DNA of 64,000 nt, taken from a virus. Taxonomy: Duplodnaviria; Caudoviricetes. Made by a program: the position numbers and the translations under genes. The stretch spans positions 66,668-130,667 of the IMG/VR virus record IMGVR_UViG_3300032038_000016. One strand, 5' to 3'. The notes under the pieces are model-generated. The model saw only the letters and a list, made by a program, of their open reading frames with translations, did not search any database and had not been told where the DNA came from. The number at the start of each line of letters is the position of its first letter. Positions within the stretch are counted from its first letter, which is position 1. Below, piece after piece: positions 2,688 to 38,042 of this stretch.

Positions 2688-3239
2688 ATGTCAGAAATTA
2701 AAGATTACATATTAAAACAGAAGGACTTGTTTACAGATGTTCAGAAAACAAAAACTAATGGATTAGCATCTTCATCTCGTATTGGAAAGCATTCCATATT
2801 GAATTATCCAAAACTTGTTGAGGACATGATTAAATATCTTGCGGGATTTAAAGATTACAAAATGAAGAGTGAGAAGTCATTCAAGCACAAAGTTTTGAGT
2901 TCTACCTATTCATTTTATAACGACATGTTTACATTGGACAAATATCGGAAAACAATTTCATTATCTGAATTTTCAGAATTAAATTACAAATTCATTGAGA
3001 AGACAAAAGAATTGCAATCTGTTCTTTCAGATCTGTCTAAGAGTGTTGATAATGAGGTTCGAAATATTGTAGAGGTTTCCGAAAAGCAATATAAAAAAAT
3101 TGGTAAAGTAAATCGTGATGATATGCTAACATACATGTGGTTGGTTGGTAATGTTCCAATTAGCCAACAATTAAAAGCATATTATAATGATCCACAAACA
3201 CCAGTTATGCATAAAGCAAATACAAAAATTAAGGAGTGA
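2688..3239 (+). CDS. Hypothetical protein in head gene cluster
   Basis: ATG 2688 follows ggtggt and abuts the upstream stop. Confidence 0.75.
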   Translation: MSEIKDYILKQKDLFTDVQKTKTNGLASSSRIGKHSILNYPKLVEDMIKYLAGFKDYKMKSEKSFKHKVLSSTYSFYNDMFTLDKYRKTISLSEFSELNYKFIEKTKELQSVLSDLSKSVDNEVRNIVEVSEKQYKKIGKVNRDDMLTYMWLVGNVPISQQLKAYYNDPQTPVMHKANTKIKE

Positions 3240-3246
3240 TTGTATT

Positions 3247-4944
3247 ATGTTTACAGAGATCGATGATATTCAGTTAAAAAGTGAATTGAACACGACAATT
3301 AGTCTCGTCAATCTGTATCAAAAGCAGTTAACATTATTGGAATATTTTGATGATAGCGTTGAAATTTCTGAAAATGATGTATTCACAGAAGCAACTGAAG
3401 CAGCAATTCAAAAGAATGATACGGCAATACAGAAGCAGGATGGACAATGGTCCAAAACCAAAACCGGTGACAATAATGATACTGCTGTGGATGATAATGC
3501 TGGTAAATCCACAGGTGGTTTTCTTAGTAATCTCGGCAATAAGATTTGGACTGCGATTAAAAAATTCTTTAATATGATTAGAGGATTTTTCAGAAGGCTT
3601 TTCAAAAAAGATAACGCTCAAAGAGTCGGTGAAGCAGCACTTACTGTCGGTAACTTTTTCGAGAATGCATCTGATGAAGAAATTCAAGAAGTTATTGACA
3701 CAATGGAAAAAGGCAAAGAAGGTGAAGTAGGAGTTTCTGAAGGAACTGATTCTGAAGGAACTGATAATGAAGCACCTGTCACGGAAATGTTTGTTTATGA
3801 AGCGTCAAACGAAGTTACGAAAATGCCAAAAAATACACCAGCAGATGATTTAGCATATTTGAAGAAAGCGTTATATGCTATGAAAACACAGAAGGGTTTC
3901 TTTGTATCAAGAATTCATAAAAGAGATTATCCGAGATATGCAAAACAAATGATTGCTTTATTGGAAGATTATGCAAAGAGAATTAATGATTCACAAGGTA
4001 ATGAATTAGTTGATATGGAGCATCTAATCAACATGTCAAGAACTACAAAAGCAAAAATGAAGTTCTGCGCAGCAAATCTTGCAGCAGCTACAACATGGCA
4101 TTCTAATATTGGCGGATCATTAGTTTCATATAAAGGATATGAAGCATTTTATAAAAGCATCATGGAAATCAATGCAGCTTTAAGTAAGTCAATTGGTGAT
4201 CTAGAAAAAGCAATGGCTAATGCCGAAAAGAATATCAAAGCATGGGAGAAGAAAATTAATAGTTCTAATAATTCACAATACGGACGTGGTTTCACAAGAA
4301 ATAAGTATCCAAGGATGGCTAAGAATCTACATGCTTTATATACCGATCTATCTGATATTATGAAATATTTAGCAACAACGGTTAGCAATACAGTTGCTAA
4401 AACAATGACTGCTGAAGTAAACTTCATTCTCACATTGAGAGGTGTGGTTGTTAAGGTCAACAAAACATCTTCAGGTTCAAGAAAGAAAAAGAATGACGGT
4501 CAGCAACAACAGCAACAGCAACAACAGCAAACCCAAAACCCACCACCAAAGGGAAAATCAAAGTCAAATAAATATGTGATGGCAACAGATAATGTTGGTC
4601 TTAATAGTGATGGGGAGATAAGTGATAAGTTCATGGGTCCAGAAATTAGTAAACAATTAGAGACTGTATGTGGTGGAAAAGTCAAATTTGCTGATATGGA
4701 TAAATACTATGTAGAATTATTCACAAAGGCAAAGGGATACCCAGCCGAGTTAACTAGTCTATCGGGATTCAATAGTAATAAGGCTTATACAATTGCTGTG
4801 ACAGCAAATAAATGCGGGAAATTCCTAGTTGTGCAATCTGGCAAAGTTAACAATGACTCAATGATTAAAAAGGCATACAATAAGAAACTTAACAACTTCG
4901 AATTCAATATGAATACAGGAGCAACGAATCCAAAACTAGATTAG
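3247..4944 (+). CDS. Putative inner-head/ejection protein, paralogue family member 1
   Basis: ATG 3247 after aaggag. IDD..E leader, FTE|A motif, amphipathic GFLSNLGNKIWTAIKKFF helix and a poly-Q run. Confidence 0.75.
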   Translation: MFTEIDDIQLKSELNTTISLVNLYQKQLTLLEYFDDSVEISENDVFTEATEAAIQKNDTAIQKQDGQWSKTKTGDNNDTAVDDNAGKSTGGFLSNLGNKIWTAIKKFFNMIRGFFRRLFKKDNAQRVGEAALTVGNFFENASDEEIQEVIDTMEKGKEGEVGVSEGTDSEGTDNEAPVTEMFVYEASNEVTKMPKNTPADDLAYLKKALYAMKTQKGFFVSRIHKRDYPRYAKQMIALLEDYAKRINDSQGNELVDMEHLINMSRTTKAKMKFCAANLAAATTWHSNIGGSLVSYKGYEAFYKSIMEINAALSKSIGDLEKAMANAEKNIKAWEKKINSSNNSQYGRGFTRNKYPRMAKNLHALYTDLSDIMKYLATTVSNTVAKTMTAEVNFILTLRGVVVKVNKTSSGSRKKKNDGQQQQQQQQQQTQNPPPKGKSKSNKYVMATDNVGLNSDGEISDKFMGPEISKQLETVCGGKVKFADMDKYYVELFTKAKGYPAELTSLSGFNSNKAYTIAVTANKCGKFLVVQSGKVNNDSMIKKAYNKKLNNFEFNMNTGATNPKLD

Positions 4945-4966
4945 TATCATAAAGGGTGTGATATCA

Positions 4967-6592
4967 ATGAATCAATATTTACTTGATAGAATAGATGACA
5001 ACGCCATTATCAATGAATTTAATACAGCGATTGTTTTATTGGAATATTATCAAAAATATATTCGTATGGACAATTATTATCAAGAAGATGGCATGGAAAT
5101 TCAACAGTCCGAAGGGACTTTGACAATGGATGGTCTTCGTGATAAAGTAAAAGGAAAATTGGATAATCAACCGAAGAAAGTTGGTTTCTTTGAAAAGATC
5201 AAAAATGCAATTAAAAAAGCAATTGATGCAGTTAAGAAATTCTTTGCAAAAATATTCAACAAGGATACAGAAAAAGAAAAAGTTGAAGCATCAAATGCAA
5301 TTAACGAAATGAAACAATCAAATGTATCCGAAGAAACTTTTGTTGAAGAATTAGAAGAAGCCATTGGTGATGATGTGGAAGAAACTGTTGATACAGCTGA
5401 ACCGGAACCACAAGAAACCCCACCAAGTAATACACCACAGACGGTAGATAATACAGCAGATAATACGACAGATGATTCGGAAGAAACTCCGCCTAAACAA
5501 TCATACGAAACACCTGAATTATCGATTGAAAAACCAGCTGTTACAAAAGGGAAAGTAAAAATCCCAAAAGAAAAAAGACAAGCTGTTGAAACACTTTGTT
5601 TGGAATGGTACAAAACTGGTCAGTGTCCAAGTAGAATTTCAGCAACAGTCGTTAACTTAATTGATCAGTTTGCTACTGCGATTGCCAAGCTTGTAAATAC
5701 TTTGCAAACTGCTGATGTTACAAATCTTACAAATCCAGAACAATTGTTAGCTGGTGTTAATAGAATTTCACAGCAATTGCATTCTGAATTACAAAAGGAT
5801 CTCGAATTGAATAATCGAGGTTTATCTAAGCAAGAAGCAAACAGTGCTTTTGTTGATGCAAGAACATCGAAGAAAGCCGCACAAAAATTAAATAAATCGA
5901 TTGAGTTATTAGAAGACACAATCATGAAAATATCAGTAGAAGATCCCCAAAAAGAAAAGCTGTTTTCTCAAATATTTGCTGGTATGAAAGGTCCAATTGC
6001 AACAGCTATGAGTGCTGCAAAAATGATTAAAGAAACAGAAGATCTTGTTGCATTATCAGAAAGATCAATAAAAGTTGTTCTTGGTAATATATTTGGTAAA
6101 ACGAGATTTGATAGACTTCATGGTGCTAGATTAAAAGGTAAAAAGAAAGCAAAGAATTTGGCAAATCGTGTAGATGATGAAAATCAACAAGACTTGCTTA
6201 ACAGAAATCAGAAATACGTTGCTGGTAGAATTGATAATAAGGAACAGCAATTGTTTAGAGATCTGGATGATCAAGTAAGAGATGTCCGTAAAAAGGGTGG
6301 TAAACCAAAAAGAGATATTGATACATCTACAATACCCACTGTCGACAATAATGGATTGGTTACGCATTCTGAAGAAATTCCGGCAGATGAAATACCAGAT
6401 GAATTAAGAACTGCTGCTGAAAATCCAGATAATGGTATTGATTTTGATGATCTTGCTGCCCAGTATGATCAAAAACCAAAATCATTTTTAGGTAAGGCAG
6501 CCGATGGTGCTCGTAGAGCTGGTCAGAAAATTAAGGACGTAATGACTCGAGATATTACACTTCCTAGAAGAAAAGCAAGTGCTGAAGGATGA
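4967..6592 (+). CDS. Putative inner-head/ejection protein, paralogue family member 2
   Basis: IDD..E leader, YQE|D motif and GFFEKIKNAIKKAI helix. Confidence 0.75.
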   Translation: MNQYLLDRIDDNAIINEFNTAIVLLEYYQKYIRMDNYYQEDGMEIQQSEGTLTMDGLRDKVKGKLDNQPKKVGFFEKIKNAIKKAIDAVKKFFAKIFNKDTEKEKVEASNAINEMKQSNVSEETFVEELEEAIGDDVEETVDTAEPEPQETPPSNTPQTVDNTADNTTDDSEETPPKQSYETPELSIEKPAVTKGKVKIPKEKRQAVETLCLEWYKTGQCPSRISATVVNLIDQFATAIAKLVNTLQTADVTNLTNPEQLLAGVNRISQQLHSELQKDLELNNRGLSKQEANSAFVDARTSKKAAQKLNKSIELLEDTIMKISVEDPQKEKLFSQIFAGMKGPIATAMSAAKMIKETEDLVALSERSIKVVLGNIFGKTRFDRLHGARLKGKKKAKNLANRVDDENQQDLLNRNQKYVAGRIDNKEQQLFRDLDDQVRDVRKKGGKPKRDIDTSTIPTVDNNGLVTHSEEIPADEIPDELRTAAENPDNGIDFDDLAAQYDQKPKSFLGKAADGARRAGQKIKDVMTRDITLPRRKASAEG

Positions 6593-6601
6593 TGATTTTT
6601 T

Positions 6602-7360
6602 ATGAATATCACAGAAGTAATTAATGATATTAAATTTACATTGGGATTGAATACCATTGCATTACCATTCCAAGATTCTACAGAAAATGTGATTGCTGAA
6701 ATTATGAAAACATCCATTCGAACATTCTCTCGTTTCAAGCCACTCATCAAAGAAGGATACGAGGAGCGAAAGCTCCTCCGTTCTCCTTCGGAAGAGGCGA
6801 AAAAGAATTGTATTTATTACTTACCCGGATCACTAACAACAACTCCTGTACAATATGCGGATGCATATCCTCAATCTGCAATTACACAGGATGGTGAAGT
6901 GACAACGAATTCATTCACAGTTGGTTCACCATTTGTTGGATTTGGTTCTTATTATCCGCAAGACATTTTGAATGCGACAAATACCGGTGCTGCAATTAAT
7001 AAGTATGCTGGAATCACTGGTTCTGTTCCTACATCAAAATGGTTGGGATATAATAAAATACAATTCTTCAATTTCCCTGAGAATATTATTGTTCGATTTG
7101 TTGTAAAATGTGATCATGATTTATCTGGAGAAACAATTCCAGAATCATGTGTAGAATCGTTTATGGAATTAGCAATGTTGGATGTTCAACGTACATTGTA
7201 TAATCAATTAAAGAATATGAATAATGTTGGTTCAGCATTTAAAGAAATCAATTTAAAGATTGATGATTGGAGTAATGCAGAATCATCACGAAAAGAATTA
7301 GTTGAAAAATGGACAAATACGTTTCATTATGATGATTTGGATTTGGTTCAATTTTTCTAA
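6602..7360 (+). CDS. Virion structural protein, possibly neck/head-completion
   Basis: 252 aa in the head cluster. N-terminus (INDIKFTLG) and size resemble myophage neck proteins. Function tentative. Confidence 0.5.
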   Translation: MNITEVINDIKFTLGLNTIALPFQDSTENVIAEIMKTSIRTFSRFKPLIKEGYEERKLLRSPSEEAKKNCIYYLPGSLTTTPVQYADAYPQSAITQDGEVTTNSFTVGSPFVGFGSYYPQDILNATNTGAAINKYAGITGSVPTSKWLGYNKIQFFNFPENIIVRFVVKCDHDLSGETIPESCVESFMELAMLDVQRTLYNQLKNMNNVGSAFKEINLKIDDWSNAESSRKELVEKWTNTFHYDDLDLVQFF

Positions 7361-7368
7361 GAGAGGAG

Positions 7369-9186
7369 ATGTTGAGTATGATTAACGATTCGATCGAATT
7401 AATAAATGATATTGATGATTATAATCTCGAATTTGAATATTGTATAACTCGTAATTTATTAGATTATTATGAAAAAATGCTGTATATGGAATTTTATTTA
7501 AGAACATCAGTATCTACATCTTCTGTTATATTAGAATCAGATGTGCCTGAAAATGATTCATCTAAAAAACAAGGGTTTCTTTCAAAGATATGGAATGGAA
7601 TTAAAAAGATTATTGATATTATTATCAATTCAATAAAAAAGGTCATAACAAATATTAAAAAACATTTTTCAAAAGTAGAAAGAGTCAATAGAGTATTGAA
7701 ATCTGCATCCAAAGAAGATCTTTCAGAAATTGAGCAATTATTTAAAAAATATGGAAATGAAAATACATCATCTGGAGATGATTCTCAGGGTCAAGATGTC
7801 ACAACAGAATCAGCCACAACACTACTCACTACTGCAAAAAATATTGGAAAAGCTTATTCAAAAATGAACTCAGCTAAAACTATTCCTGGAAAAATATCTG
7901 CTGCTACAAACGTGTTTGGACCACAAATTGCTAATGAGCTGGCTAAAAAAGCAACTACCTCAACTGTAGCAACTGCTGCTGCAGCAGCTGGTGGTCATGC
8001 TATTACAACATCTGTTACAGCAGCGTTGACAACATTCGCTGGCGCAAGCGTTGCTGCTTCCACAACCGGTTTATTAGCAACAATTAATGCACCAACTTTG
8101 ATTGCGACAAGTATTATTAGCTTGGCTATATCTGGTACTAATAAATTCATTAATTCAACTGAAAAAGGAAAAGAAAAATATAGAAAAGAACATACAAATT
8201 TACCAACAATGGATCAAATTTTATATACTGGAGCCTTTTTGTCAAAAAATATGAATTCGATTAATACACAGGTTGCATCATTATCAACTTCTTCAACATT
8301 AAGAACTGGATCTATTACTTCGCTTATTTCGGCAGATGTCAAACGAACATTAAATGATATTGAAAAAATTAAAAATTATGCTTGGAAATCGACTAATGCA
8401 AATGAACCGGTTGTATTAGAAACTATGCGGAGAGTGTCGTTATTTCATGAAAGAATTTTAAAATTAAGAGAACAAGGATCTAGAATCAAAGAGAGATCTA
8501 AGGGAACAGACAACCTTGTTTCATCGTTTGATACATTCGAAGATGCCGCTATTTTTACAGATTCATACACTGTATTTTCTTCTATTCAAGGTAATGAATT
8601 AAATAATATGCTACAAGATTTGGATAATAAAATGGAAGAATTTAAATTATCATTTGAAAATAACCCTATATTCCAAAATTTGTATAATATGGCAGGGGAT
8701 GAATACACTGATACTACAGAAATGGGAATTATTAAAACACGCGATGCAAAGAAGCAAGATGCGATAAATAAAAAACAGAATGACCAATATTTGAAGGAAT
8801 CAGACAGAAAATTTGAAATTACAATTAAAAATGATCTTGTACCAATAAGAGCATTTGTTGATGCAGTTGCTAAATATATATTTGGTGTAAAAGAGGCATA
8901 TGATGTCACATTAGAGGTGTGTCAGGCTCTTGCTATTACCAGTCGAAAAGTATTGCGATTTATTAATAACAATTCTGCGCTTGCTGATGTTGCAAATGAA
9001 AATAAACGAGTTAATCGCTCAAGAGAAAACGTATTTAGCAAACTTGGTAATCAATATCTAACTGGTAAAGGATCAACAAAATATTCCAGAGATGATGGTA
9101 GATATAATGATGAAAACCATCAGAAGTATACTTCAGATAATCTCACAACAGCGCTTGACAATGGAAATACTGTTATTCCACAATAA
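7369..9186 (+). CDS. Putative inner-head/ejection protein, paralogue family member 3
   Basis: IDD..E leader, ILE|S and TTE|S motifs, GFLSKIWNGIKKII helix, and a long Ala/Thr-rich hydrophobic segment. Confidence 0.75.
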   Translation: MLSMINDSIELINDIDDYNLEFEYCITRNLLDYYEKMLYMEFYLRTSVSTSSVILESDVPENDSSKKQGFLSKIWNGIKKIIDIIINSIKKVITNIKKHFSKVERVNRVLKSASKEDLSEIEQLFKKYGNENTSSGDDSQGQDVTTESATTLLTTAKNIGKAYSKMNSAKTIPGKISAATNVFGPQIANELAKKATTSTVATAAAAAGGHAITTSVTAALTTFAGASVAASTTGLLATINAPTLIATSIISLAISGTNKFINSTEKGKEKYRKEHTNLPTMDQILYTGAFLSKNMNSINTQVASLSTSSTLRTGSITSLISADVKRTLNDIEKIKNYAWKSTNANEPVVLETMRRVSLFHERILKLREQGSRIKERSKGTDNLVSSFDTFEDAAIFTDSYTVFSSIQGNELNNMLQDLDNKMEEFKLSFENNPIFQNLYNMAGDEYTDTTEMGIIKTRDAKKQDAINKKQNDQYLKESDRKFEITIKNDLVPIRAFVDAVAKYIFGVKEAYDVTLEVCQALAITSRKVLRFINNNSALADVANENKRVNRSRENVFSKLGNQYLTGKGSTKYSRDDGRYNDENHQKYTSDNLTTALDNGNTVIPQ

Positions 9187-9284: not shown

Positions 9285-12200
9285 ATGCCAAATGATAAGA
9301 AGAAAAGAAATATATTAGCTCAAACTGCGTGGATTGCGAAAGAAGCTGGTAAAGAATCATTTCTTAATGATTATACATCCAACATTTCACAATTGGCACA
9401 AGACACCAAGATGATTAGTGAAACATTGATGGCTGGTAAAACAAAAGTCAGAGATGTGTTTACCGATATGAAACAGAATGGTGGTAAGAAATTCGCTGAT
9501 TGGTTCTTCGATCGTGGTGATGAGTTCTCAGATGGTGATTTGTCAACAGACAGCGATTCTGATTTTGACGCTGGTTTTGATATTGATAACGGTGGTGAAG
9601 ATTCTGGTCCACCATCACAAATCCTTGATGCAGATTCCATGAAAGGAATTGCACGTGGACAAGTCAGTGCCATGTACAATATTGCAGGCAAACAAGCAGA
9701 AGCAGCCATGATGAATGCTTCTCAAATTACATCTGAAATTAATGGAAGAGCTAGTGAGATTATTACATCAATCAATAATCTAAATAAATCAGTTATTTCC
9801 ATTTCTGAAAAATTAGATTCATTATTGAAATTACAATCAGCTGTTGCAGAAGCAAACGCTGAACAAACATCACAATTGTCCGAAGGTGGAGGTAAACAGA
9901 GAGGAATTTATAATGAACAAGGAAAGGTAACACTTGGATCATTCTTTAATTATCAAAAGCAAAGAGTATCCGACATGAGTGACACTGTTAAAATGTTCTT
10001 GGATCCAGCTCAATGGTCACCGGCAACAGTATTATCCTCACTCATAGATATGACCGGAGTCAAAGATAAAAAGATATTTGGTAAATCAAATGGTGAAGGT
10101 GAGCATAAAGATGATAACAAAGTTTCATACAATGAAATGATGAAGACCATCAATGATACATTGGATGTTACTTTGGAAAAGTATTTAACCAAAGCAACTG
10201 AACCACCTGCTTGGTTGAAGAAGATACCCGGATTTGATTTATTTGGCGGATTTATTGAAGATTTGTTTCGAGGTGATCGTGGTGATGCAAGACGTCAAGC
10301 AAACGATCGTCAATCGTATATTACCGATACCTATAACACGAAAGAAGCAAAGTTTGATGGTATTGTTCGTCAATCGATTGTTGAAATCATTCCCGGATAT
10401 TTACAACAAATCGTCGGTGCTTTAACTGGTGAAGATTTCCATGTTGATCGTCATGGTCATTTATCCAACAAAAAAGAATCTGATGTGGAAAAAATGCAAT
10501 CATTTGATACATCGGTGTATTCTCGTTCTGCATTGGATAGTGATGATCGATCAGATTTCTTGAAAGGTTTAAAAGCTGAAACATATACGGTTGCGAATAA
10601 AGATGGTGGTACACAAACAAAGAAGAATCCATATATTGAAAAGATGACTGCTTCAGCAACTGATGCTGCAATGCAATCATTTATGTTTTGGGCAATTCAA
10701 TACTTCACTGAAGAACATCCTCGAATGGAAGTAATTCATGGATTAAAAACACCGGAATTCTGGCAATATATCAGCAAAAACATGTCGGCGAATATTGATA
10801 TTCCAGGATGGAATAAAGACGTAATTAAATTTTATATTGCACAATTGCGATATCAAATTACGAATAATGATAAATCAAATGTTCATACAGCTCGTATCAT
10901 TCGCCAAGCATGTGAAGCCGAAACAAAGGCCAAAGAATCATTTTATGCAAATGCTGCAGCAAAAGGACAAATTGAGAATGTTCCAGACTTAACCCCTCAG
11001 AACATTTCAAAGTTATTGGCTTCTAAACAAGATTTACAAATTGAGACATCAAACTTCAATGAAGAACGTCAAAAAGCTATTGAAGATATTAATGCAAAAA
11101 CGGAAGAGAGATTGAAGAATGGTGCAATCGATGAAACAGTTGGTGATCGGAAATTTCATATTGATCAAAGTGCACCAAGAATTGGTGCATTAAAAGAAAA
11201 ATATGAAAAAGAATTAGCAGAATATAAACAAGCATTGTTGGATAGTATGGAATCATCCATGACAGGAGCCGATGGAAAGAAATTAAACTTCTCCGAATGG
11301 CAAAAGCAATTGGAGAAGAAAGGCCAAGAAGACACTTCCAAAATGGATACGATGTCCGGAATATTATCCAAAGATGCACCAATTCCAAAATTCCATGCAA
11401 ATGTAATAGGTAGATTGGATACGATCATTGATCTTCTTGGTAGTAGTAAAAAAGGTAAATCTAAAGTATATACGAAGTATCGTCAAGCTCGTGATGCAGA
11501 ACTTGCTGCAGAAGAAGCTGCAAGAAAAGAAGCTGAAAATGCAACAACAATCGATACAGGCAATAATGATAATACCAATAATGATAATACCAATGACAAC
11601 AATGGTGGTGATAACAAAGGTGGAAATAAAGAAGATGATAGTGGTGGGGATGATGATGAACCCCCTCCTATTGTTAGAGAGGATCCTGGTTTTGCAAAAG
11701 AAATGAAATCCACAATCTCCCAATTCGACATCAAGGGAGGTTTAAAAGAAATTATTTCAGCACCATTTGCTGCAGTATCATCATTATTCGAGAAAGCAAA
11801 AAAGAAGATCACAAAATCTCCCGAAGATCAATCATCAAATGGCAATAGTAATGATGAGGATAAAGAAGAAGAAAAGAAAGAGAAACAAGAGAAAGAACAA
11901 GCAGAAGATGCTGCTGTTGTACAAGCTGCGTCAAGTGTCAGTACCAATCTTTCACAAGATGGAGAATCTGATTCTAAAGAAAAATCATTGATTTCTAGCG
12001 CATTGGATCATATTAAAAATCCCGGATTGAAAAAGATTGTAAAATCCATTCATGCTAAAGGTGCAGATGCAATCACAGAAGCTCAAGAAAAAGCCGATAA
12101 GAAAGGTGGAATTATTGGTAAGCTTTTTGGTAGTGGTGGACTCCTCGCAATTGCTGGCAAAAAATTAATGGATTTTGTAAAGAATTTTATTGCAAAGCCA

Positions 12201-15200
12201 TTCATTAATATTGTCGGAAAACCATTCTTACAATTCTTGAAAGACGGCATCAGTCATGGTTTCAAAAATGTGAAAGAAGGATTTTCCGAATTATTTAACA
12301 TTAAAAAGAAAGATCCAGAGCAAGTCAAAAAAGAAACAGATGAAGAAAAGACAAGAAAAACAATTCAAGATATTATACCAGCATGGTTGGGAAGTATAAA
12401 AGAAGCAATTGAGAATATTGGTAAACCAAAACCCGAACAACCTACTGGTGGGACAAACAACACACAAGAAAATACTGAATCAGATGGTCAAAACCAAGAA
12501 ACCTGGTATGATAAACTCAAAGCAAAAGCATCTGGTGTCAAAACAAAAATTGGTGAGAAACTTTTTGGAACAGAGAATAATCGAACAAAATTAGGTGGCT
12601 TCGTTGATAACGTTAAAAAAAATCCGGTGATTGGAGCAATTGGAAAAATACTTGGGCCACTTGGTAAAATAGCCTTGGGTGTTGGCCAAATTATTGCATC
12701 GGTTGTAATGGGATTTGCAGCAGTAAAGTCTTTCTCTAAATTTGTAACAAACGTTTTGACCAAGAGTCTAAAGGGACTCGAGAAAGGTGTTTCCAAGATT
12801 CTAAATGCTGTAAAACCAATTGTCACAATTATTGGTAATTTCATATCGAAGATTTCAGATTTTGCATCAAAAATTGTTGATTCACTATCTGGTATTTTAG
12901 GAACATTAATGGGTGTTGTTGGACGTGTATTAACGACAATATTGGATTCGTTAACACCATTCTTTGATGCAATATTGACAGTACTAGATACTGTAGTTGA
13001 TATCGTAACACCAATTCTTGATATTATTATTGAAGCATTGAGTCCGATATTAGACACATTAGGTGAATTTCTTTCTTCTGTCGGCGATATCATGAAGGAC
13101 GTATTAGCACCATTTGTAGAAATTATTGGAGAACTACTCGTTCCTGTTTTAAAACTTGTTGCACCATATTTTGAACTTGTAACATCCGTATTGTCAACTG
13201 TTGCTAAATTCATATCAGGGACATTGAAAACAACTGTTGTTCCAATTTTGAAAACAATTGCAAATGCTGTTGGCTTGGTTGCTGATGGAATTAAGAGGAT
13301 TATTGGATTTGGTAAGAAAATATTAGGCGGACTCATCAGCGGTATTGGACGACTCATGAAGGGTGTTGGTACACTAACTTTCAATAAGAACCTCAAGCAA
13401 AAAGGTGATGAGTTAATCAAAGCTGGTGGTGATAAAGTCCAAGAAGGCCAAGAAAAGATGAATGCTGCTGATGAATCGTTTGGTAAGCGCATAGAAAAGC
13501 AGAAGGAGATCGATAGGTCCTCAATTCTTAATAAAGAAAAACAACATGAAGTTGGTAATGCTGCTGCTAAAGAAATAGGTAATTTAGCGGGAAAGGCTAT
13601 CAACACAATACCTATTGTAAATGTTACAAACGCTGTAATGGATACTGATATTGGTGGTGCAATTGGAAAAACAGGAGCTAATGTTGTTAATGCAGGCCGA
13701 GATCTCTATTATGGTTCAAAAATTCCTGATGTTGATCCAACAAAGGTAACAGGATCTGGTGATGAAGCTATTGAATATCAATCTGGTGTATTGGAAGAAA
13801 TTCGTGACTATGTTGCGGTTGTTCCTGAAATGTTAACGACTGGATTCAAGATATTTAAACCCATTATTCAATTAATTGCAACTGGTATTAAAGCAATTGC
13901 AGCTCCTATCACAATTATTGCAAAAATCATATCCGTGATCGCTGCTCCATATGCTAAGTTATTTAGTAAGATTGGTAATTTGTTATTTGGTAAAAATGAT
14001 GATGAACAAAGTGGTGACGGTATTCATCAAACAGAAACAATGCCAAAGAATGGAGCAATACCAAAGATCGATAATTCTAAGATTGGTGAAATCAATATCG
14101 ATGTACGTGGTTCTGGTGATACTGATATCTCTAGTGATACACAAGAATTGATCAATGTATTTAAACCAGTATCTGATGATGTACTTGATGTATTAATCGA
14201 TATTCGAAATGCATTGGTTGGCGGTATCGGTGGAGGCACTAGTGGTGACGGATCCGGTAAAGGAAAATCATCATTACCTGGTGGATTGATTGATAGTCGT
14301 ACCGGTTCCATGTATTCCGATAGTATGACTGGTGCTGGATTTGGTGCATCACAAGGTTCGAACATTGCACTTGCATCAACACCTGGATCCACAAGTGAAT
14401 TCCAAGATAATACAGAAGGTACTTATGGTGAAAAGATTCTGAATACTGGTGGATTGAATGGTGTCATCAGTAACATTCGTGACAATTCTGTTTCAGTATT
14501 AAAGTCTGTTAAGGAAGATCGCTTGGGTATATTCCCTGTACTATCTGCATCATTATCTCCAATCTCTGCAACATTGATGAGTTTCTTCTCAGCATTTGTA
14601 AAAGTTTATCTACCAACATTTGCATCATTGGTAAATGATATCGCAATGCCGTTGCTCAAACAATTTGTCAAATATCATGATGATTATACCGATTTCCAAT
14701 ATAAGATTCAATTGCCGATGTTATCATCCGTACGTGTTAACATGGTTCCTAAGATTCAATCTCTATTAGCACAGCTGGAGGTATTGCTTGGTGCAATGCA
14801 ATCTGGTATGGGACAAATCTTAGCTGGACAAGGAATGATCTTAATTGCATTGAATCAACCAGCAATGGGTGAAACATTATTCAAAGCAGCAGGTGGTTTG
14901 GCAGCAGCTGGGTTAAATGTAATGATGTCTGGTGTTACTGCACAAGCAAATCTTGTATCAAAGCAATTGGATAATACTAACCAACCTATTTCTGAATTGT
15001 ATGAGCCTCAAGGTACTCCAGAAAATAATGGTGAAGAAGAACCATCTGAAGAACCAACTCCTGAAAATACACCACAAACCGAACCTTCCAATCCTACTAA
15101 TCCAACTCCAACTCCTGAACCAACTCCGCAAGATGAACCACAAACTGAACCATCTAATCCTACTAATCCAACTCCATCAAATCCTGATGGTACAAGTCCT

Positions 15201-18200
15201 GATACAACACCTTCACCTTCACCTTCACCTAGTCCTTCTTCGGAACCAGAACCAGAGCCATCGCCGAGTCCTACCCCAACTCCTAATACTAATCCTAATA
15301 CTAATCCTGGACAATCTCCTACCCCAACTCCTAATACTAATCCTAATACTAATCCTGGACAATCTCCTACCCCAACTCCTAATACTAATCCTAATACTAA
15401 TCCTGGACAATCTCCACAAATTGAACCAACTCCTACTCCTACACCAATTCCTGAACCTGGCACAAAACCTGATACAACACCTCAGCCACCCCCACCCGTT
15501 ATTGATACAAATAGTGTTGGTTATCATCCATTAACAGATGTAACTGGTGGTGGTGATTCACAAGGATCCTATGGTGGATTCATGAATATGGGTAAACGTG
15601 GATGTGGTCCATTAGCATTAGCTGATGCATTGGTTCGTCGTGGTAGCGGTAATGTCGATACACGTGCATTAACAAAATCAATGGCTGCTTCCGGTGCATA
15701 TTCACAAACTCGTGGAACAAGTGTTGGTGGATTCATCAACTATGCAAGATCCATGGGTGTGGGATATCAAATTGGTGGTGTGACGAATAATTCGTTACGT
15801 CGTGCATCTCCAAATAATCCAATCACTCTCGTTGGTAGTGGCGGAGGATTTGGTACCAGAAATGGTAATAATCACTACATCAACGTGATTGGTACAGACG
15901 GTGCAGGTGGTGCATATGTATCTAACCCAATGACTGGGCGGATTGAACGTCGTTCTGTTGGTGATTTAACTGCTGGATCAATTATGGGATTATATGGATC
16001 TGGTGATGTTGAGCCATATGACATTTATGATTTATATGGTAATGGACCAACAACAGCCACATCTGCTATACAAGTTCAAACAAATTATGGATCTCCATCT
16101 CCGTATGGAACAAGCACAACAGTTGATGGTACGAGATATAGCTCATCTAATGCGACATACAATAGAATTAGTTCAAATCTTGCTTCACAAATCATTGCCT
16201 ATGTTCCAAGTAGTACTCAAGAGGCGATTAATACAGCATATAAGTTATGGGCTGCAAATAATAAAGATCACGTACAAACATACAATACAGCTGCAAAATG
16301 GTTAGCGAAACAAATACAAGACGGTGGTACAACGGGATTATATTGGCCGATATTCACAGATGAAGAAAAAGCAGCAGTAAATGGCGCCGTTCTTAAAGCA
16401 ATTTACGATACAAAGTTCAAATATGGCAATGTCACATCAACAGAAACTGGAGAATCTGCCGGTACATTATCAGGTAGCACAAGTGGTGGATTAACTCAGA
16501 AAGAGGCAGCAAAGAGACTTGCTGAATTGAAAGTAAGTAATCCAGATCTATACAACCAACTTGTTGAAGCATACAATATGCAAGTAGCAAATGGTAAACT
16601 AAGTCCTGATTCACAACCAATGGATTGGTGGGTTGCTCATAATAGTGGGCAATTTGATCCCGAAAAGGGCAACTTTGAAACATTGGTAAAACTGTTATCA
16701 AGTTCCATAATAAGTAGCTATAATAAACCCGGTGGTTCATCAGGTAGTGAAGATGGAACCTCTGCAGATGGAACATCATATGCATCTAGTGGTGTTAGTG
16801 CTGGCTATAGCGGTGCTGGAATAGGATATGGTGTGCCTGGATTTACCGTCATTGGTGTCACAAACGGTGCTTCGGGAACATACAAAACGCAATATAGCGG
16901 TAAAGATGATGAACGTTATGTTGCTGAAAATGTTGATCCTGAATCATTAAAGAAAGAAGCAGGTAATCCATATCGTGCATTTGCAGAATCAATGAAGAAA
17001 CTTCAGAATGTATTCAATAACATTTTGAATATCTTCACAGGTGGTAATAATAACAAAGTTCGTGACGTATTAGAAGAAGAAGCAAATAAGGAAAGTGAAC
17101 AAACTTCTCGTGAGTATCTGGGTAATGAAGCATATGAAGAATATGAACCAGTGGCATACAAACTTTACCAAGATGAACATCCTCAAAATGCAAATGAATC
17201 TGATGAAAATTATGCAAAACGTTTACAAGGTGGCTGGACTGATGCTGTGAGACGGAAATACATGAAACGTGTTTCCAAGAATGATTTGAAGAAGACCAAT
17301 GGTTTATATCAAACTTCCATGATTGATGCTGCTAATGGTGTATCATCATCTACATGGGGTGATTATGATAAAGAGCAAGGTCTTTGGACCAATAGCGCAT
17401 TAGGCGGTATTAACTACAACGGTGTTGCAACTGTGAATGGTGGTATCGGTTCATTAATGATCAACTCTGGTGTTGGTGGTTCATCATATGCCGGAGGAGG
17501 AACTGGTGCTTTGTCAGGTGGAGCTACTGGTACTGCTGCTAATGGCGGTACAATGGCATCTGGTGATGGAGCCATCATGGATACGAGTAGTTACACACAA
17601 GAAATTACAGATGTCAATATTCAAGCTGGAGCAACCGGAATGCTACAGTCTCCAGTACATGAATTCTTCTCAAAAACTGGTGGTGCTGCTGTTGAATATG
17701 CAAGTAGCGGCGATCAAAACTGGTATGTTTATAGAGGTGGACCATTAGCCAATAATAAAGGTGAAGGTACAACATCAGATGTGCACAAAGGTATCGATAT
17801 TTGGACAATTCCAAAAGACAAACGTGAAGGTGGCGCAGAACTGCATGCTATCACAGGAGGAACCGTTGTTGATGCTCGTGGTGGCGGTAAACGTGAAAGT
17901 GATAGTTCCAATAATGGTGGTTGGGGTAATACTGTTGCTTGGACAGATAGTGCTGGATATAAACATAGATATGCTCATATGTATGAAGATCCATCTGTTA
18001 AAGTTGGTGACACAATTGCACCTGGTCAATTACTTGGTCATATGGGTGATACCGGTTATTCACGTGGATCTCATTTGCATTATCAAGTTGAAACAGCTTC
18101 AGGCCAACCTGTGAATCCATTAACATACTTCGAATATCGTGCTCCATCACAACCGTTAACATCAAATAATTCTTCGTATGATTCAACATCAACTGTTGAT

Positions 18201-20405
18201 GCAGATGAAGAGGGAAGAAATGCACTAGGTGCAGGTTCTGATTTGGAACAGAATCCAAATTCTGATTATTGGGCACCGTATGTTTGGAACTTCTTAAAGA
18301 GTGAAGGTTTCTCGGATGCTGGTGCTGCTGGTGTTATGGGTAACTTCTATCGAGAGAGTTTGATGATTCCTTATTTGGCCGAAGGAAAGGGTTATTCACC
18401 GCCATATCAAGGATCATGGGATTACACATTAAAAGCCGATGCAGGTGGTAGCTTCGTTGGCGATAGTGTCGGTTATGGTCTAGCGCAATGGACAAACAGC
18501 TCAAGAAAACAAACATTACTGAATAATGCAAAATCAAACAATGTCTCAGTTGGTTCGTTAACAGCTCAATTTGCAACATTGAGAGAAGAATTAGCTGGTT
18601 CTGAAAAGGCTGCAGCATCCGTTAAAAACGATACAGATCCTGTTACGGCTGCGAGAAATTGGCAGAAGTTATTTGAAAGAGCCGGTGTTGTTGCACAAGA
18701 AGATCGTGATAATGCAGCAAAGAAATACTTTGAACAATTTAATGGTACAATGGGAACTGCTGCTAACGGTACTGGAGGACTGATGACTGGTGGCGGAGCA
18801 ATGCCAATGCTTGGTAACGGATATCAATTCAAGAATGATGAATATCTTGATATATGGGATGACACAGCAATGTTGCAAACTCCTGAAAAACGTGGATTTG
18901 GTAGAGCTACTAGAAATGGTGGATTTATCAATTATGCAACAGCTGCTGCTGGTGGCATCAAGAACAACTTCCAAGTTGATACAGACTTCTCACAAGCTAC
19001 ATTAGGTATCGTACAAGCTGGTGGATTATCCGGTGGAGGTGGTGCTGGCGGATACGGTGCTAGTGGCGCATTAGGCGGAACTGGTGTTACAGTATCTGGA
19101 AACGGTGGACAATTTGTCAATAGTTTAACAGCAGTCAATGTTGCTGCCAAATCTCAATTACAACGTACTTACGACGATAGTCATAGTTGGACAAAACTGA
19201 ATTTGAATGGAAAAACATTATCAGGTAAAGTAGACTGTACAGGTATGATCGAATTTGCATTAGATGATATGGGTTTGGAAAACTCATACAATTCAAATGC
19301 ATTCGTTAGTGCTGCTGCATCAAATCAATATCCAATTAAAGACAAAAGTGGAAATCAATCAACCGCATTTATATCCATGCCATTCAATAAAGAATCAGTA
19401 CAACTTGGTGATATTCTCGTTCGTAATGGACATGGTGAAGTTGCTGCTGGTGTGTATAATGGTAAGATTTATGGTTGGAACTGGGGAAATGATGATGATA
19501 TCGTTTATTCAGAAGATGTTTCCGAGAAGATTGCTGCTGGTGCAGATCCATTACAAGCATTTGTTGAAAATGGTCGTCCCACACTTGGTTCTCATACATA
19601 TATCATACGTCCGAATGGTGGTGGCGGTGGTGGTACATCATCAACACAAACAACAGATGAAGAAGCATCATCATTATCTGCAGCATTGGGTGTAACTGGT
19701 TCAGGTGATTATGATGAATCGATTCCAGCAATTGATACAAATAAACTTATAGGATTCACAGGAAGTACTATTAGTCCAGAAGGTTCTTATGAAGAATATT
19801 ATGAGCAGCAAGCATATGAATTGTACATGAGAGAGCATCCACAGAATAGTGGTGAATCTGATGAAAACTATGAGAAACGTTTACAAGCTGGATGGACTGA
19901 CGATGTAAAACGGAAGTACATGAAACGTGTTTCCAAGGATGACTTGAAGAATAGAAACAGTTCATTTATGCAATATGCACAAATCACAAAACCAGATCAT
20001 CCATCAATATTTGGAGACTATGATAAATCAACTGGAACATGGGATGATGCATTATTCAAACCTACTACCAATAAGACATCAATCATCAAAGCAGATAGAA
20101 CAATTAACAACACCATCACAAATGTAGATGATCCAAAACCACAAGTTGTAAATAACACGACATATCAGATTCAGAAATCTGATAAGACAGATAATGAAAG
20201 AATGGAACGTTTGATGAACCATACATTCAATGTATCTGCAAAACGTGTAGAAGATTTGTTAGAAAAGATCATTGACAAAATGGATACTATGACAGGAAAA
20301 AAAGAACCGGATATCACAGACGTATTGGGTTTGAACAATAACAATCAAAACCCATTCCCGAATGACGATATTCCGATGCAAATTCAAAGACTTTCAAAAG
20401 GATAA
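9285..20405 (+). CDS. Tape-measure / tail-associated multi-domain peptidoglycan hydrolase, 3706 aa
   Basis: SD aaggaggt. Amphipathic ~11-aa repeats (~12600-13400) and a Pro/Thr linker. C39-like peptidase (GCGP, NHYINV, SNP; ~15560-15990). M23 peptidase (HKGIDI, YAHM, HLHYQV; ~17770-18130). Phage tail lysozyme (GVMGNFYRES, GLAQWT, FERAG; ~18280-18740). NlpC/P60-like domain (DCTG, GDILV, GHGE; ~19230-19490). Confidence 0.9.
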   Translation: MPNDKKKRNILAQTAWIAKEAGKESFLNDYTSNISQLAQDTKMISETLMAGKTKVRDVFTDMKQNGGKKFADWFFDRGDEFSDGDLSTDSDSDFDAGFDIDNGGEDSGPPSQILDADSMKGIARGQVSAMYNIAGKQAEAAMMNASQITSEINGRASEIITSINNLNKSVISISEKLDSLLKLQSAVAEANAEQTSQLSEGGGKQRGIYNEQGKVTLGSFFNYQKQRVSDMSDTVKMFLDPAQWSPATVLSSLIDMTGVKDKKIFGKSNGEGEHKDDNKVSYNEMMKTINDTLDVTLEKYLTKATEPPAWLKKIPGFDLFGGFIEDLFRGDRGDARRQANDRQSYITDTYNTKEAKFDGIVRQSIVEIIPGYLQQIVGALTGEDFHVDRHGHLSNKKESDVEKMQSFDTSVYSRSALDSDDRSDFLKGLKAETYTVANKDGGTQTKKNPYIEKMTASATDAAMQSFMFWAIQYFTEEHPRMEVIHGLKTPEFWQYISKNMSANIDIPGWNKDVIKFYIAQLRYQITNNDKSNVHTARIIRQACEAETKAKESFYANAAAKGQIENVPDLTPQNISKLLASKQDLQIETSNFNEERQKAIEDINAKTEERLKNGAIDETVGDRKFHIDQSAPRIGALKEKYEKELAEYKQALLDSMESSMTGADGKKLNFSEWQKQLEKKGQEDTSKMDTMSGILSKDAPIPKFHANVIGRLDTIIDLLGSSKKGKSKVYTKYRQARDAELAAEEAARKEAENATTIDTGNNDNTNNDNTNDNNGGDNKGGNKEDDSGGDDDEPPPIVREDPGFAKEMKSTISQFDIKGGLKEIISAPFAAVSSLFEKAKKKITKSPEDQSSNGNSNDEDKEEEKKEKQEKEQAEDAAVVQAASSVSTNLSQDGESDSKEKSLISSALDHIKNPGLKKIVKSIHAKGADAITEAQEKADKKGGIIGKLFGSGGLLAIAGKKLMDFVKNFIAKPFINIVGKPFLQFLKDGISHGFKNVKEGFSELFNIKKKDPEQVKKETDEEKTRKTIQDIIPAWLGSIKEAIENIGKPKPEQPTGGTNNTQENTESDGQNQETWYDKLKAKASGVKTKIGEKLFGTENNRTKLGGFVDNVKKNPVIGAIGKILGPLGKIALGVGQIIASVVMGFAAVKSFSKFVTNVLTKSLKGLEKGVSKILNAVKPIVTIIGNFISKISDFASKIVDSLSGILGTLMGVVGRVLTTILDSLTPFFDAILTVLDTVVDIVTPILDIIIEALSPILDTLGEFLSSVGDIMKDVLAPFVEIIGELLVPVLKLVAPYFELVTSVLSTVAKFISGTLKTTVVPILKTIANAVGLVADGIKRIIGFGKKILGGLISGIGRLMKGVGTLTFNKNLKQKGDELIKAGGDKVQEGQEKMNAADESFGKRIEKQKEIDRSSILNKEKQHEVGNAAAKEIGNLAGKAINTIPIVNVTNAVMDTDIGGAIGKTGANVVNAGRDLYYGSKIPDVDPTKVTGSGDEAIEYQSGVLEEIRDYVAVVPEMLTTGFKIFKPIIQLIATGIKAIAAPITIIAKIISVIAAPYAKLFSKIGNLLFGKNDDEQSGDGIHQTETMPKNGAIPKIDNSKIGEINIDVRGSGDTDISSDTQELINVFKPVSDDVLDVLIDIRNALVGGIGGGTSGDGSGKGKSSLPGGLIDSRTGSMYSDSMTGAGFGASQGSNIALASTPGSTSEFQDNTEGTYGEKILNTGGLNGVISNIRDNSVSVLKSVKEDRLGIFPVLSASLSPISATLMSFFSAFVKVYLPTFASLVNDIAMPLLKQFVKYHDDYTDFQYKIQLPMLSSVRVNMVPKIQSLLAQLEVLLGAMQSGMGQILAGQGMILIALNQPAMGETLFKAAGGLAAAGLNVMMSGVTAQANLVSKQLDNTNQPISELYEPQGTPENNGEEEPSEEPTPENTPQTEPSNPTNPTPTPEPTPQDEPQTEPSNPTNPTPSNPDGTSPDTTPSPSPSPSPSSEPEPEPSPSPTPTPNTNPNTNPGQSPTPTPNTNPNTNPGQSPTPTPNTNPNTNPGQSPQIEPTPTPTPIPEPGTKPDTTPQPPPPVIDTNSVGYHPLTDVTGGGDSQGSYGGFMNMGKRGCGPLALADALVRRGSGNVDTRALTKSMAASGAYSQTRGTSVGGFINYARSMGVGYQIGGVTNNSLRRASPNNPITLVGSGGGFGTRNGNNHYINVIGTDGAGGAYVSNPMTGRIERRSVGDLTAGSIMGLYGSGDVEPYDIYDLYGNGPTTATSAIQVQTNYGSPSPYGTSTTVDGTRYSSSNATYNRISSNLASQIIAYVPSSTQEAINTAYKLWAANNKDHVQTYNTAAKWLAKQIQDGGTTGLYWPIFTDEEKAAVNGAVLKAIYDTKFKYGNVTSTETGESAGTLSGSTSGGLTQKEAAKRLAELKVSNPDLYNQLVEAYNMQVANGKLSPDSQPMDWWVAHNSGQFDPEKGNFETLVKLLSSSIISSYNKPGGSSGSEDGTSADGTSYASSGVSAGYSGAGIGYGVPGFTVIGVTNGASGTYKTQYSGKDDERYVAENVDPESLKKEAGNPYRAFAESMKKLQNVFNNILNIFTGGNNNKVRDVLEEEANKESEQTSREYLGNEAYEEYEPVAYKLYQDEHPQNANESDENYAKRLQGGWTDAVRRKYMKRVSKNDLKKTNGLYQTSMIDAANGVSSSTWGDYDKEQGLWTNSALGGINYNGVATVNGGIGSLMINSGVGGSSYAGGGTGALSGGATGTAANGGTMASGDGAIMDTSSYTQEITDVNIQAGATGMLQSPVHEFFSKTGGAAVEYASSGDQNWYVYRGGPLANNKGEGTTSDVHKGIDIWTIPKDKREGGAELHAITGGTVVDARGGGKRESDSSNNGGWGNTVAWTDSAGYKHRYAHMYEDPSVKVGDTIAPGQLLGHMGDTGYSRGSHLHYQVETASGQPVNPLTYFEYRAPSQPLTSNNSSYDSTSTVDADEEGRNALGAGSDLEQNPNSDYWAPYVWNFLKSEGFSDAGAAGVMGNFYRESLMIPYLAEGKGYSPPYQGSWDYTLKADAGGSFVGDSVGYGLAQWTNSSRKQTLLNNAKSNNVSVGSLTAQFATLREELAGSEKAAASVKNDTDPVTAARNWQKLFERAGVVAQEDRDNAAKKYFEQFNGTMGTAANGTGGLMTGGGAMPMLGNGYQFKNDEYLDIWDDTAMLQTPEKRGFGRATRNGGFINYATAAAGGIKNNFQVDTDFSQATLGIVQAGGLSGGGGAGGYGASGALGGTGVTVSGNGGQFVNSLTAVNVAAKSQLQRTYDDSHSWTKLNLNGKTLSGKVDCTGMIEFALDDMGLENSYNSNAFVSAAASNQYPIKDKSGNQSTAFISMPFNKESVQLGDILVRNGHGEVAAGVYNGKIYGWNWGNDDDIVYSEDVSEKIAAGADPLQAFVENGRPTLGSHTYIIRPNGGGGGGTSSTQTTDEEASSLSAALGVTGSGDYDESIPAIDTNKLIGFTGSTISPEGSYEEYYEQQAYELYMREHPQNSGESDENYEKRLQAGWTDDVKRKYMKRVSKDDLKNRNSSFMQYAQITKPDHPSIFGDYDKSTGTWDDALFKPTTNKTSIIKADRTINNTITNVDDPKPQVVNNTTYQIQKSDKTDNERMERLMNHTFNVSAKRVEDLLEKIIDKMDTMTGKKEPDITDVLGLNNNNQNPFPNDDIPMQIQRLSKG
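15270..15413 (+). repeat. Three perfect 48-bp in-frame tandem repeats (PTPTPNTNPNTNPGQS)
   Basis: Unit cctaccccaactcctaatactaatcctaatactaatcctggacaatct at 15270, 15318 and 15366. Confidence 0.95.
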
Positions 20406-38007: not shown

Positions 38008-38029
38008 ACCATCAATCTCCTTTCTATCA

Positions 38030-38042
38030 AACGAAATCATAA
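38030..38042 (+). promoter_or_regulatory. Putative late promoter AACG-N6-TAA for the baseplate wedge gene
   Basis: AACG-AAATCA-TAA. Confidence 0.6.

Follow-up and report, generated by a model that had tools for sequence, protein, structure and literature searches.

A candidate self-processing, tape-measure-like giant protein with an embedded C39-fold peptidase in an uncultured jumbo phage

The locus described here raises the question of whether a giant virion protein of a tailed phage can carry both a protease and the sites at which that protease cuts. The window, a stretch of 64,000 nucleotides (nt), is the second half of the 130,667-bp IMG/VR record IMGVR_UViG_3300032038_000016. An open reading frame (ORF) called in the window encodes a tape-measure-like protein of 3706 amino acids (aa), hereafter the giant protein, in which a cysteine peptidase domain with a predicted C39 fold is located among five copies of a short G-S-G-D-type tag. 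The record is rated 48% complete by CheckV, which implies an uncultured jumbo phage with a genome of roughly 270 kb. Judged from the sequences, the best explanation of this arrangement is probably that the giant protein cuts itself into pieces as a self-processing polyprotein.

The tags and the peptidase domain between them

The giant protein contains exactly five G-x-G-D motifs, all of which have the form [VL]-x-G-[SG]-G-D (sites 1-5, Table 1). Composition-preserving shuffles gave expected numbers of 0.07 for [VL].G[SG]GD and 0.5 for G[SG]GD, and none of the 2000 shuffles reached five. The G[SGA]GD motifs elsewhere in the 130.7-kb record are merely scattered and lack the [VL]-x context. A Pro/Thr linker lies shortly before site 3. 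Site 5 is located within a stretch of ~55 residues with a predicted local distance difference test score (pLDDT) near 31, between folded modules and with a helical module next, indicating that this site is in a linker.

The segments RGCGP (Cys2107), NHYINV (His2197) and SNP (Asn2214) are all located between sites 3 and 4. Comparison of 146 unique copies of the domain showed that G-Cys2107-G-P, His2197, Asn2200 and Asn2214-Pro are invariant and that Gln2093 is present in 131 copies. GCGP is also kept in all 164 domain copies from 142 dereplicated giant homologues. In the AlphaFold2 model, built on an alignment of 28 homologues (pLDDT 81.7, predicted template-modelling score 0.79), Cys2107 starts the helix of model residues 34-44. 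Foldseek ranks the double-glycine C39 domains of PCAT1, ComA and LahT150 highest (E 1e-4 to 5e-4), and VIA agrees. The range aligned to the C39 structures ends at model residue 166, which corresponds to Gly2240, the last Gly of site 4. The domain is C39-like by its modelled fold and its catalytic residues, not by sequence-family membership.

A preliminary description of this DNA had listed the five (V/L)-x-G-(S/G)-G-D copies at positions that proved exact. It had also proposed a C39-like papain-fold domain between sites 3 and 4, which holds for the modelled fold and the invariant Cys, His and Asn but not as a Pfam family. The wall-hydrolase block that it had placed between sites 4 and 5 is borne out by Pfam for the M23 peptidase and the lysozyme, and its third domain is CHAP/NlpC-P60-like. 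An embedded protease and a short consensus at the module borders, by which a polyprotein is recognised, are both present in the giant protein.

Conservation of the tag in homologues and paralogues

A word-indexed search (E <= 0.001), covering proteins of 2038-6486 aa, recovered the domain in 343 giant proteins with 50-70% identity, and the contigs that encode them are up to ~297 kb long. When 1.84 billion cluster representatives were scanned exhaustively with phmmer, only 147 matched, 142 of them at E <= 1e-10. Nearly all of the matched proteins have 2.1-3.8 thousand residues, and they are set sharply apart from four distant giants with ~30% identity. Thus, the peptidase domain is confined to such proteins. 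The genomes of the complete relatives span 250-295 kb; direct terminal repeats are present in one, and CheckV puts the completeness of three at 100%. A Paludibacteraceae metagenome-assembled genome is the labelled source of one homologue, a weak lead to a Bacteroidales host. For the distant giant P0236, the peptidase matches only unannotated faecal phage fragments; cultured Bacillus and Listeria phages match this protein solely in a glucosaminidase part. A second, N-terminal copy of the peptidase (aa ~600-730; P0004-P0060 and others) with intact Cys, His and Asn is found in 55 of 121 homologues.

The tag has a defined composition and defined locations in the 142 dereplicated giants. GSGD occurs 2.44 times per protein, compared with 0.16 times after shuffling. 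The last residue of the GSGx tetrapeptides is Asp 5.6-fold over background, whereas Glu is at 0.2-fold of background; the residue preceding the tag is Tyr 16-fold over background, and the residue one further back is Leu or Ile. The tag flanks the C-terminal side of the domain in 135 of 164 domains and the N-terminal side in 112 of 164, and 113 of the 142 proteins have a tag 90-260 aa from the C-terminus. In a redundant set of 121 homologues, the tag is located ~18 aa before GCGP and ~132 aa after it as x-G-[LI]-Y-G-S-G-D, and a C-terminal tag, usually followed by IPPID, is located 105-135 aa before the end in 102 of the proteins. Sites 2, 3 and 4 are at the same positions in close relatives, with ASGD, GSGN and ASGN as variants, among which the third tag position (Gly) never varies. 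The preliminary description had named, as a test, whether the motif and the C39 domain coincide at domain boundaries in homologues, and the tag is strongly conserved at the same architectural positions.

Essentially only this protein family carries the tag. Across 25 related IMG/VR loci, the density of G[SGA]GD is 1.04 per 1000 aa in the giants vs. 0.16 in their neighbours. In a complete relative of 294,548 bp, the ORFs of at least 100 aa contain four copies of GSGD in total, and the giant protein has every one of them.

A second giant gene, coding for 1889-2318 aa, directly follows the first in five loci (L010, L011, L014, L023 and L025). The encoded paralogues share the N-terminal, tape-measure-like and post-peptidase regions with the giant protein. 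The peptidase-domain profile matches only the last strand and the tag in these paralogues, indicating that the peptidase domain itself is missing. All five retain GS.M.G[IL][YIT]GSGD at the corresponding junction, and the consensus downstream of it is that found after site 4; three (L010, L014 and L025) have a second clear tag near the C-terminus. The retention of the tag under selection in a protease-less paralogue encoded beside the protease gene fits what cleavage in trans would predict. Among five near-complete relatives (89-100%), four have a single giant and one, which holds L014, has two; the present half-genome has one only.

The same junctions bear on an explanation in which nothing is cleaved, the tag being part of the peptidase fold (its first and last strands) and the other copies being remnants of duplications or deletions. 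The C39 structural alignment extends through the YGSG strand, the conserved Gln follows on from the N-flank, and the paralogue tag sits exactly at the point of domain loss, as would be expected from such remnants. However, the C-terminal tag followed by IPPID, kept in 113 of 142 proteins, adjoins no peptidase remnant, and site 2 holds its position in close relatives. The tag remnants are also intact in five diverged paralogues, which indicates selection. An uncleaved, purely structural tag is thus considered very unlikely.

Proposed processing and competing explanations

Substrates of C39 enzymes are cut after Gly-Gly, Gly-Ala or Gly-Ser, and their hydrophobic residue at position -4 docks in a groove of the enzyme (PMC6363468). 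The tag fits this specificity when it is read as [LIV] at P5, [YTF] at P4, Gly/Ala at P3, Ser/Ala/Gly at P2, Gly at P1 and Asp/Asn at P1'. In the proposed mechanism, the peptidase (Cys2107/His2197/Asn2214) would recognise the tag [LIV]-[YTF]-G-S-G-D and would most likely cut after the second Gly, with Ser at P2, Gly at P1 and Asp at P1', by analogy with the double-glycine C39 enzymes. The first cut would be the one that frees the peptidase's own C-terminus, since the last strand of the peptidase fold terminates in the tag. The other tags would then be cut on neighbouring copies and, in some phages, on the protease-less paralogue. Cut in this way, the hydrophobic tape-measure part, the protease, the wall-hydrolase block and a C-terminal anchor would become separate pieces.

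Assuming that all five sites are cut after that Gly, the predicted pieces are aa 1-1492 with the N-terminal and tape-measure-like regions, a hydrophobic piece (aa 1493-1611), a piece with hydrophobic sequence and the Pro/Thr linker (aa 1612-2090), the protease (aa 2091-2240, 150 aa), a piece with the M23, lysozyme and CHAP-like domains (aa 2241-3474, 1234 aa) and the C-terminal module (aa 3475-3706, 232 aa). We infer the cleavage itself, the scissile bond, the order of the cuts and their timing. A complex prediction for the peptidase (aa 2091-2240) and the site-5 segment (aa 3446-3500) gave a score of 0.04, which is evidence neither way. The preliminary description had the embedded protease cutting the precursor as a polyprotein strategy for tail maturation. 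The fold, the triad, the conserved and confined tags and the tag-keeping paralogues favour the first part, with the cut itself still a prediction, and the second part is a guess in which the tape-measure identity comes from modest PHROG matches.

Several points weigh against self-processing or are weaker parts of the proposal. The tape-measure identity is uncertain, and site 1 is unique to this phage lineage. In many homologues the N-flank tag loosens to Y-G-x-G-x-x-Q; as this degenerate form runs on into the conserved Gln, part of its role may be structural. At site 4 the tag forms the end of the domain's last strand, and its conservation could in part be that of the fold. Searches of aa 2070-2250 gave no Pfam match even at E up to 10, and a phmmer search of the peptidase segment against PDB sequences gave nothing relevant, so that the fold call comes from the predicted structure. 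No cultured relative or proteome came to light: in a collection of 50,697 deposited phage records, tblastn matched nothing with the peptidase segment, whether the E cut-off was 1e-5 or 10, and nothing with the N-terminal 420 aa at E up to 1e-3. All homologues were collected via the peptidase domain, and the fair test of co-occurrence is limited to the tandem paralogues. A search with the N-terminal 420 aa retrieved 27 proteins, mostly already in the peptidase-derived set, with no peptidase-less homologue among them.

Two further points on the same side are that PeiR ties with the C39 domains on fold, which leaves room for a wall-hydrolase role, and that the extra N-terminal peptidase copies are mostly without flanking tags. 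The latter favours an explanation in which the C39-like domain serves as one more cell-wall hydrolase, the fourth, acting on peptidoglycan as an endo- or isopeptidase and delivered together with M23, lysozyme and CHAP, and in which the tags are uncleaved linker, hinge or docking elements. The giant protein is already full of wall hydrolases, and C39-like domains in mycobacteriophage lysin A are reported to act on cell walls (PMC3314691). However, the pseudomurein endoisopeptidases PeiR and PeiW and the C39-like lysin A have no repeated flanking tags, and a wall-peptidase role in the giant protein is already covered by the M23 and CHAP-like domains. In addition, the tag has the make-up of a double-glycine-type site, small-small-Gly plus a hydrophobic P4, and it recurs far from the domain and in domain-less paralogues. 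It favours Asp and avoids Glu, a sequence specificity that would be unusual in a passive linker. A fourth hydrolase is therefore conceivable but rather unlikely.

Another protease could also cut the tags, namely the protein's own M23 Gly-Gly endopeptidase, a phage head-maturation protease or a host enzyme. M23-dependent autoprocessing has been proposed for the lactococcal tail lysins of Tuc2009 (Tal) and TP901-1. M23 enzymes cut Gly-rich peptides, and the giant protein has an M23 domain. PMC10038345 does not name the enzymes that process the tape measure proteins of T5 and lambda, and the title of its reference 36 hints at a host role for a T5 tail protein. Unlike in the Tal-type lysin, however, M23 does not always accompany the tags: about 35 homologues without a Pfam M23 domain keep three tags each. 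A C39-like domain is found in every tag-bearing protein or in its tandem partner. As for a head protease, the giant protein lacks the N-terminal leader common to three upstream ORFs, and the depletion of GSGE argues against a Glu-specific enzyme. There is thus only a slim chance that another protease processes the tags.

Self-processing could also be delayed. The protease might be latent in the virion and fire only after ejection into the host envelope or cytoplasm, as in MARTX toxins, which we regard as improbable. If so, three wall hydrolases, membrane-inserting pieces and the protease would be released on site. The tail protein would then act as a train of effectors that is delivered and dismantles itself, and host proteins might also be cut by the freed C39 enzyme.

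Setting of the giant gene and comparison with known systems

The positions of the features of the giant gene are given in Table 1. The tape-measure PHROG matches at aa ~1086-1440 (phrog_6090, E 1.5e-12; phrog_1272, 1.9e-10; phrog_5493, 3e-7) cover the hydrophobic low-complexity part only, and the assignment of the giant protein as a tail tape measure protein is only moderately supported by these sequence matches.

Table 1. Features of the giant gene in window coordinates (nt), with the related tandem paralogues in coordinates of their own loci
Feature	Position	Strand	Remarks
Giant gene, tape-measure-like virion protein (3706 aa), candidate self-processing polyprotein	9285..20405	+	343 giant homologues
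Conserved N-terminal region, aa 1-420	9285..10544	+	Common to all homologues and the protease-less paralogues
Hydrophobic Gly-rich tape-measure-like region, aa ~1086-1440	12540..13604	+	PHROG matches, hydrophobicity profile
Site 1, VTGSGD, aa 1488-1493	13746..13763	+	First Gly aa 1490 (nt 13752); only in this phage lineage
Site 2, VRGSGD, aa 1607-1612	14103..14120	+	First Gly aa 1609 (nt 14109); same position in close relatives as GSGD, ASGD or ASGN
Pro/Thr-rich low-complexity linker with tandem DNA repeats, shortly before site 3	15051..15415	+	
Site 3, VTGGGD, aa 2086-2091, peptidase N-flank	15540..15557	+	First Gly aa 2088 (nt 15546); followed by conserved Gln2093
C39-fold cysteine peptidase domain (predicted), aa 2092-2237	15558..15995	+	146 copies, AlphaFold2, Foldseek and VIA; codons of Cys2107 15603-15605, His2197 15873-15875, Asn2214 15924-15926
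Site 4, LYGSGD, aa 2236-2241, peptidase C-flank	15990..16007	+	First Gly aa 2238 (nt 15996); most conserved site (G-[LI]-Y-G-S-G-D)
Peptidase_M23 domain, aa 2833-2945	17781..18119	+	Pfam E 2.5e-16
Phage tail lysozyme domain (Phage_lysozyme2, PF18013), aa 2997-3152	18273..18740	+	Pfam E 4.3e-29
CHAP/NlpC-P60-like domain, aa ~3276-3447	19110..19625	+	
Site 5, VTGSGD, aa 3470-3475	19692..19709	+	First Gly aa 3472 (nt 19698); followed by IPAID
C-terminal piece, aa 3476-3706	19710..20402	+	Duplicated helical module and family-wide conserved C-terminal tail
Tandem paralogues without the peptidase	L010:13500-20033, L011:6849-13640, L014:13553-20053, L023:13584-20537, L025:12448-18114		

The tandem DNA repeats of the linker comprise 3.1 copies of 48 nt (100% identity) and 1.9 copies of 66 nt. 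The 48-nt repeat (window 15269-15415) codes for a 16-aa Pro/Thr/Asn unit before site 3. P0002, a 99%-identical relative, has 16 aa fewer between site 2 and the peptidase, exactly one repeat unit, and the linker length thus differs between near-identical phages. A helical module of ~55 aa (E-H-P-Q-N...E-S-D-E-N-Y...K-Y-M-K-R-V-S-K) occurs twice in the giant protein, at aa ~2615-2672 and 3502-3556 (window ~17130-17300 and 19788-19952). Most homologues have it once, shortly after the site-4 tag; the second module follows site 5, and because of it the C-terminal piece exceeds its usual length by ~120 aa. The motif I-P-x-I-D-[TN]-[NS]-K-[IL]-G is found both before site 2 (window ~14040-14075, aa ~1586-1597) and after site 5 (19719-19745, aa ~3479-3487).

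The neighbours of the giant gene are mostly without recognisable annotation. ORF 6602-7360 (+) encodes a 252-aa virion protein (phrog_18911), and in its nearest language-model clusters only 11-16% of the members are annotated as T4 gp13 neck protein, a lead to neck or head-completion genes beside the giant gene. ORFs 3187-4944, 4958-6592 and 7369-9186 (+), otherwise unrelated, are those that share the N-terminal leader I-D-D ... L-x-x-Y-x-K. Its absence from the giant protein speaks for a place in the tail rather than inside the head. A search for a T4-type prohead protease (PF03420) in this half-genome record was negative. The sheath families PF04984 and PF17482 were not found in the record or in three complete relatives, which does not show that a sheath is absent. 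ORF 32161-38040 (-), of 1959 aa, also has a Phage_lysozyme2 domain (E 3.6e-11); it lacks the G-S-G-D tag and is no paralogue of the giant protein. ORF 59412-61427 (-) matches the phage multisubunit RNA polymerase beta family (phrog_3015, E 7.8e-40), which places the phage with the jumbo phages that have their own RNA polymerase.

Comparison with the C39 domains of the PCAT/AMS ATP-binding cassette (ABC) transporters (ComA PEP 3k8u/5xe8, PCAT1 4ry2/7n87, LahT150 6mpz) showed the same placement of Cys at a helix start and of His and Asn/Asp about 90 and 17 residues after the preceding catalytic residue. Their cleavage specificity fits the tag Y-G-S-G-D cut before the Asp. However, the domain of the giant protein has only 15-19% identity to them and no Pfam match, and it is located in the middle of a giant virion protein rather than at the N-terminus of an ABC exporter. 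Its putative substrates are the giant protein itself and the paralogue instead of secreted peptides, and its conserved Gln is 14 rather than 6 residues before the Cys, with Asn2101 at position -6.

RNA-virus polyproteins and MARTX toxins with their cysteine protease domain are self-processing precursors with an embedded cysteine protease. The giant protein resembles them in being a long precursor with an internal cysteine protease, a short border consensus and a predicted release of effector modules. It differs in being a structural protein of a tailed double-stranded DNA phage, with a different protease family and putative cleavage.

That the tape measure proteins of lambda and T5 are cut as the tail assembles is a finding of long standing. 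T5 pb2 is cut after R1127, between a hydrophobic stretch and a metallopeptidase, and its C-terminal piece stays in the tail tip; lambda gpH is likewise cleaved to H* (PMC10038345). As in the maturation of T5 pb2, lambda gpH and T4 gp5, a cut is predicted between the hydrophobic and the wall-hydrolase parts of the giant protein, with separation of a C-terminal piece. However, each of those proteins undergoes a single cut and has no protease domain described inside it, whereas the giant protein carries a candidate dedicated protease and up to five conserved tags. To our knowledge, the protease that cuts the lambda and T5 tape measure proteins is still unknown. No prior description of a C39 protease in a tape measure protein or of GSGD cleavage was found in the literature, and the preprint on the giant tape measure of P23-45 reports no processing.

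The proposal combines three known kinds of system, namely self-processing polyproteins, C39 double-glycine proteases and tape-measure maturation. If confirmed, the compact, sequence-specific pair of protease and tag (Y-G-S-G-D) may also serve as a tool. This family of uncultured jumbo phages places a candidate protease and its sites in one polypeptide, which, if confirmed, would be the first polyprotein-style self-processing structural protein of a tailed double-stranded DNA phage found in the literature.

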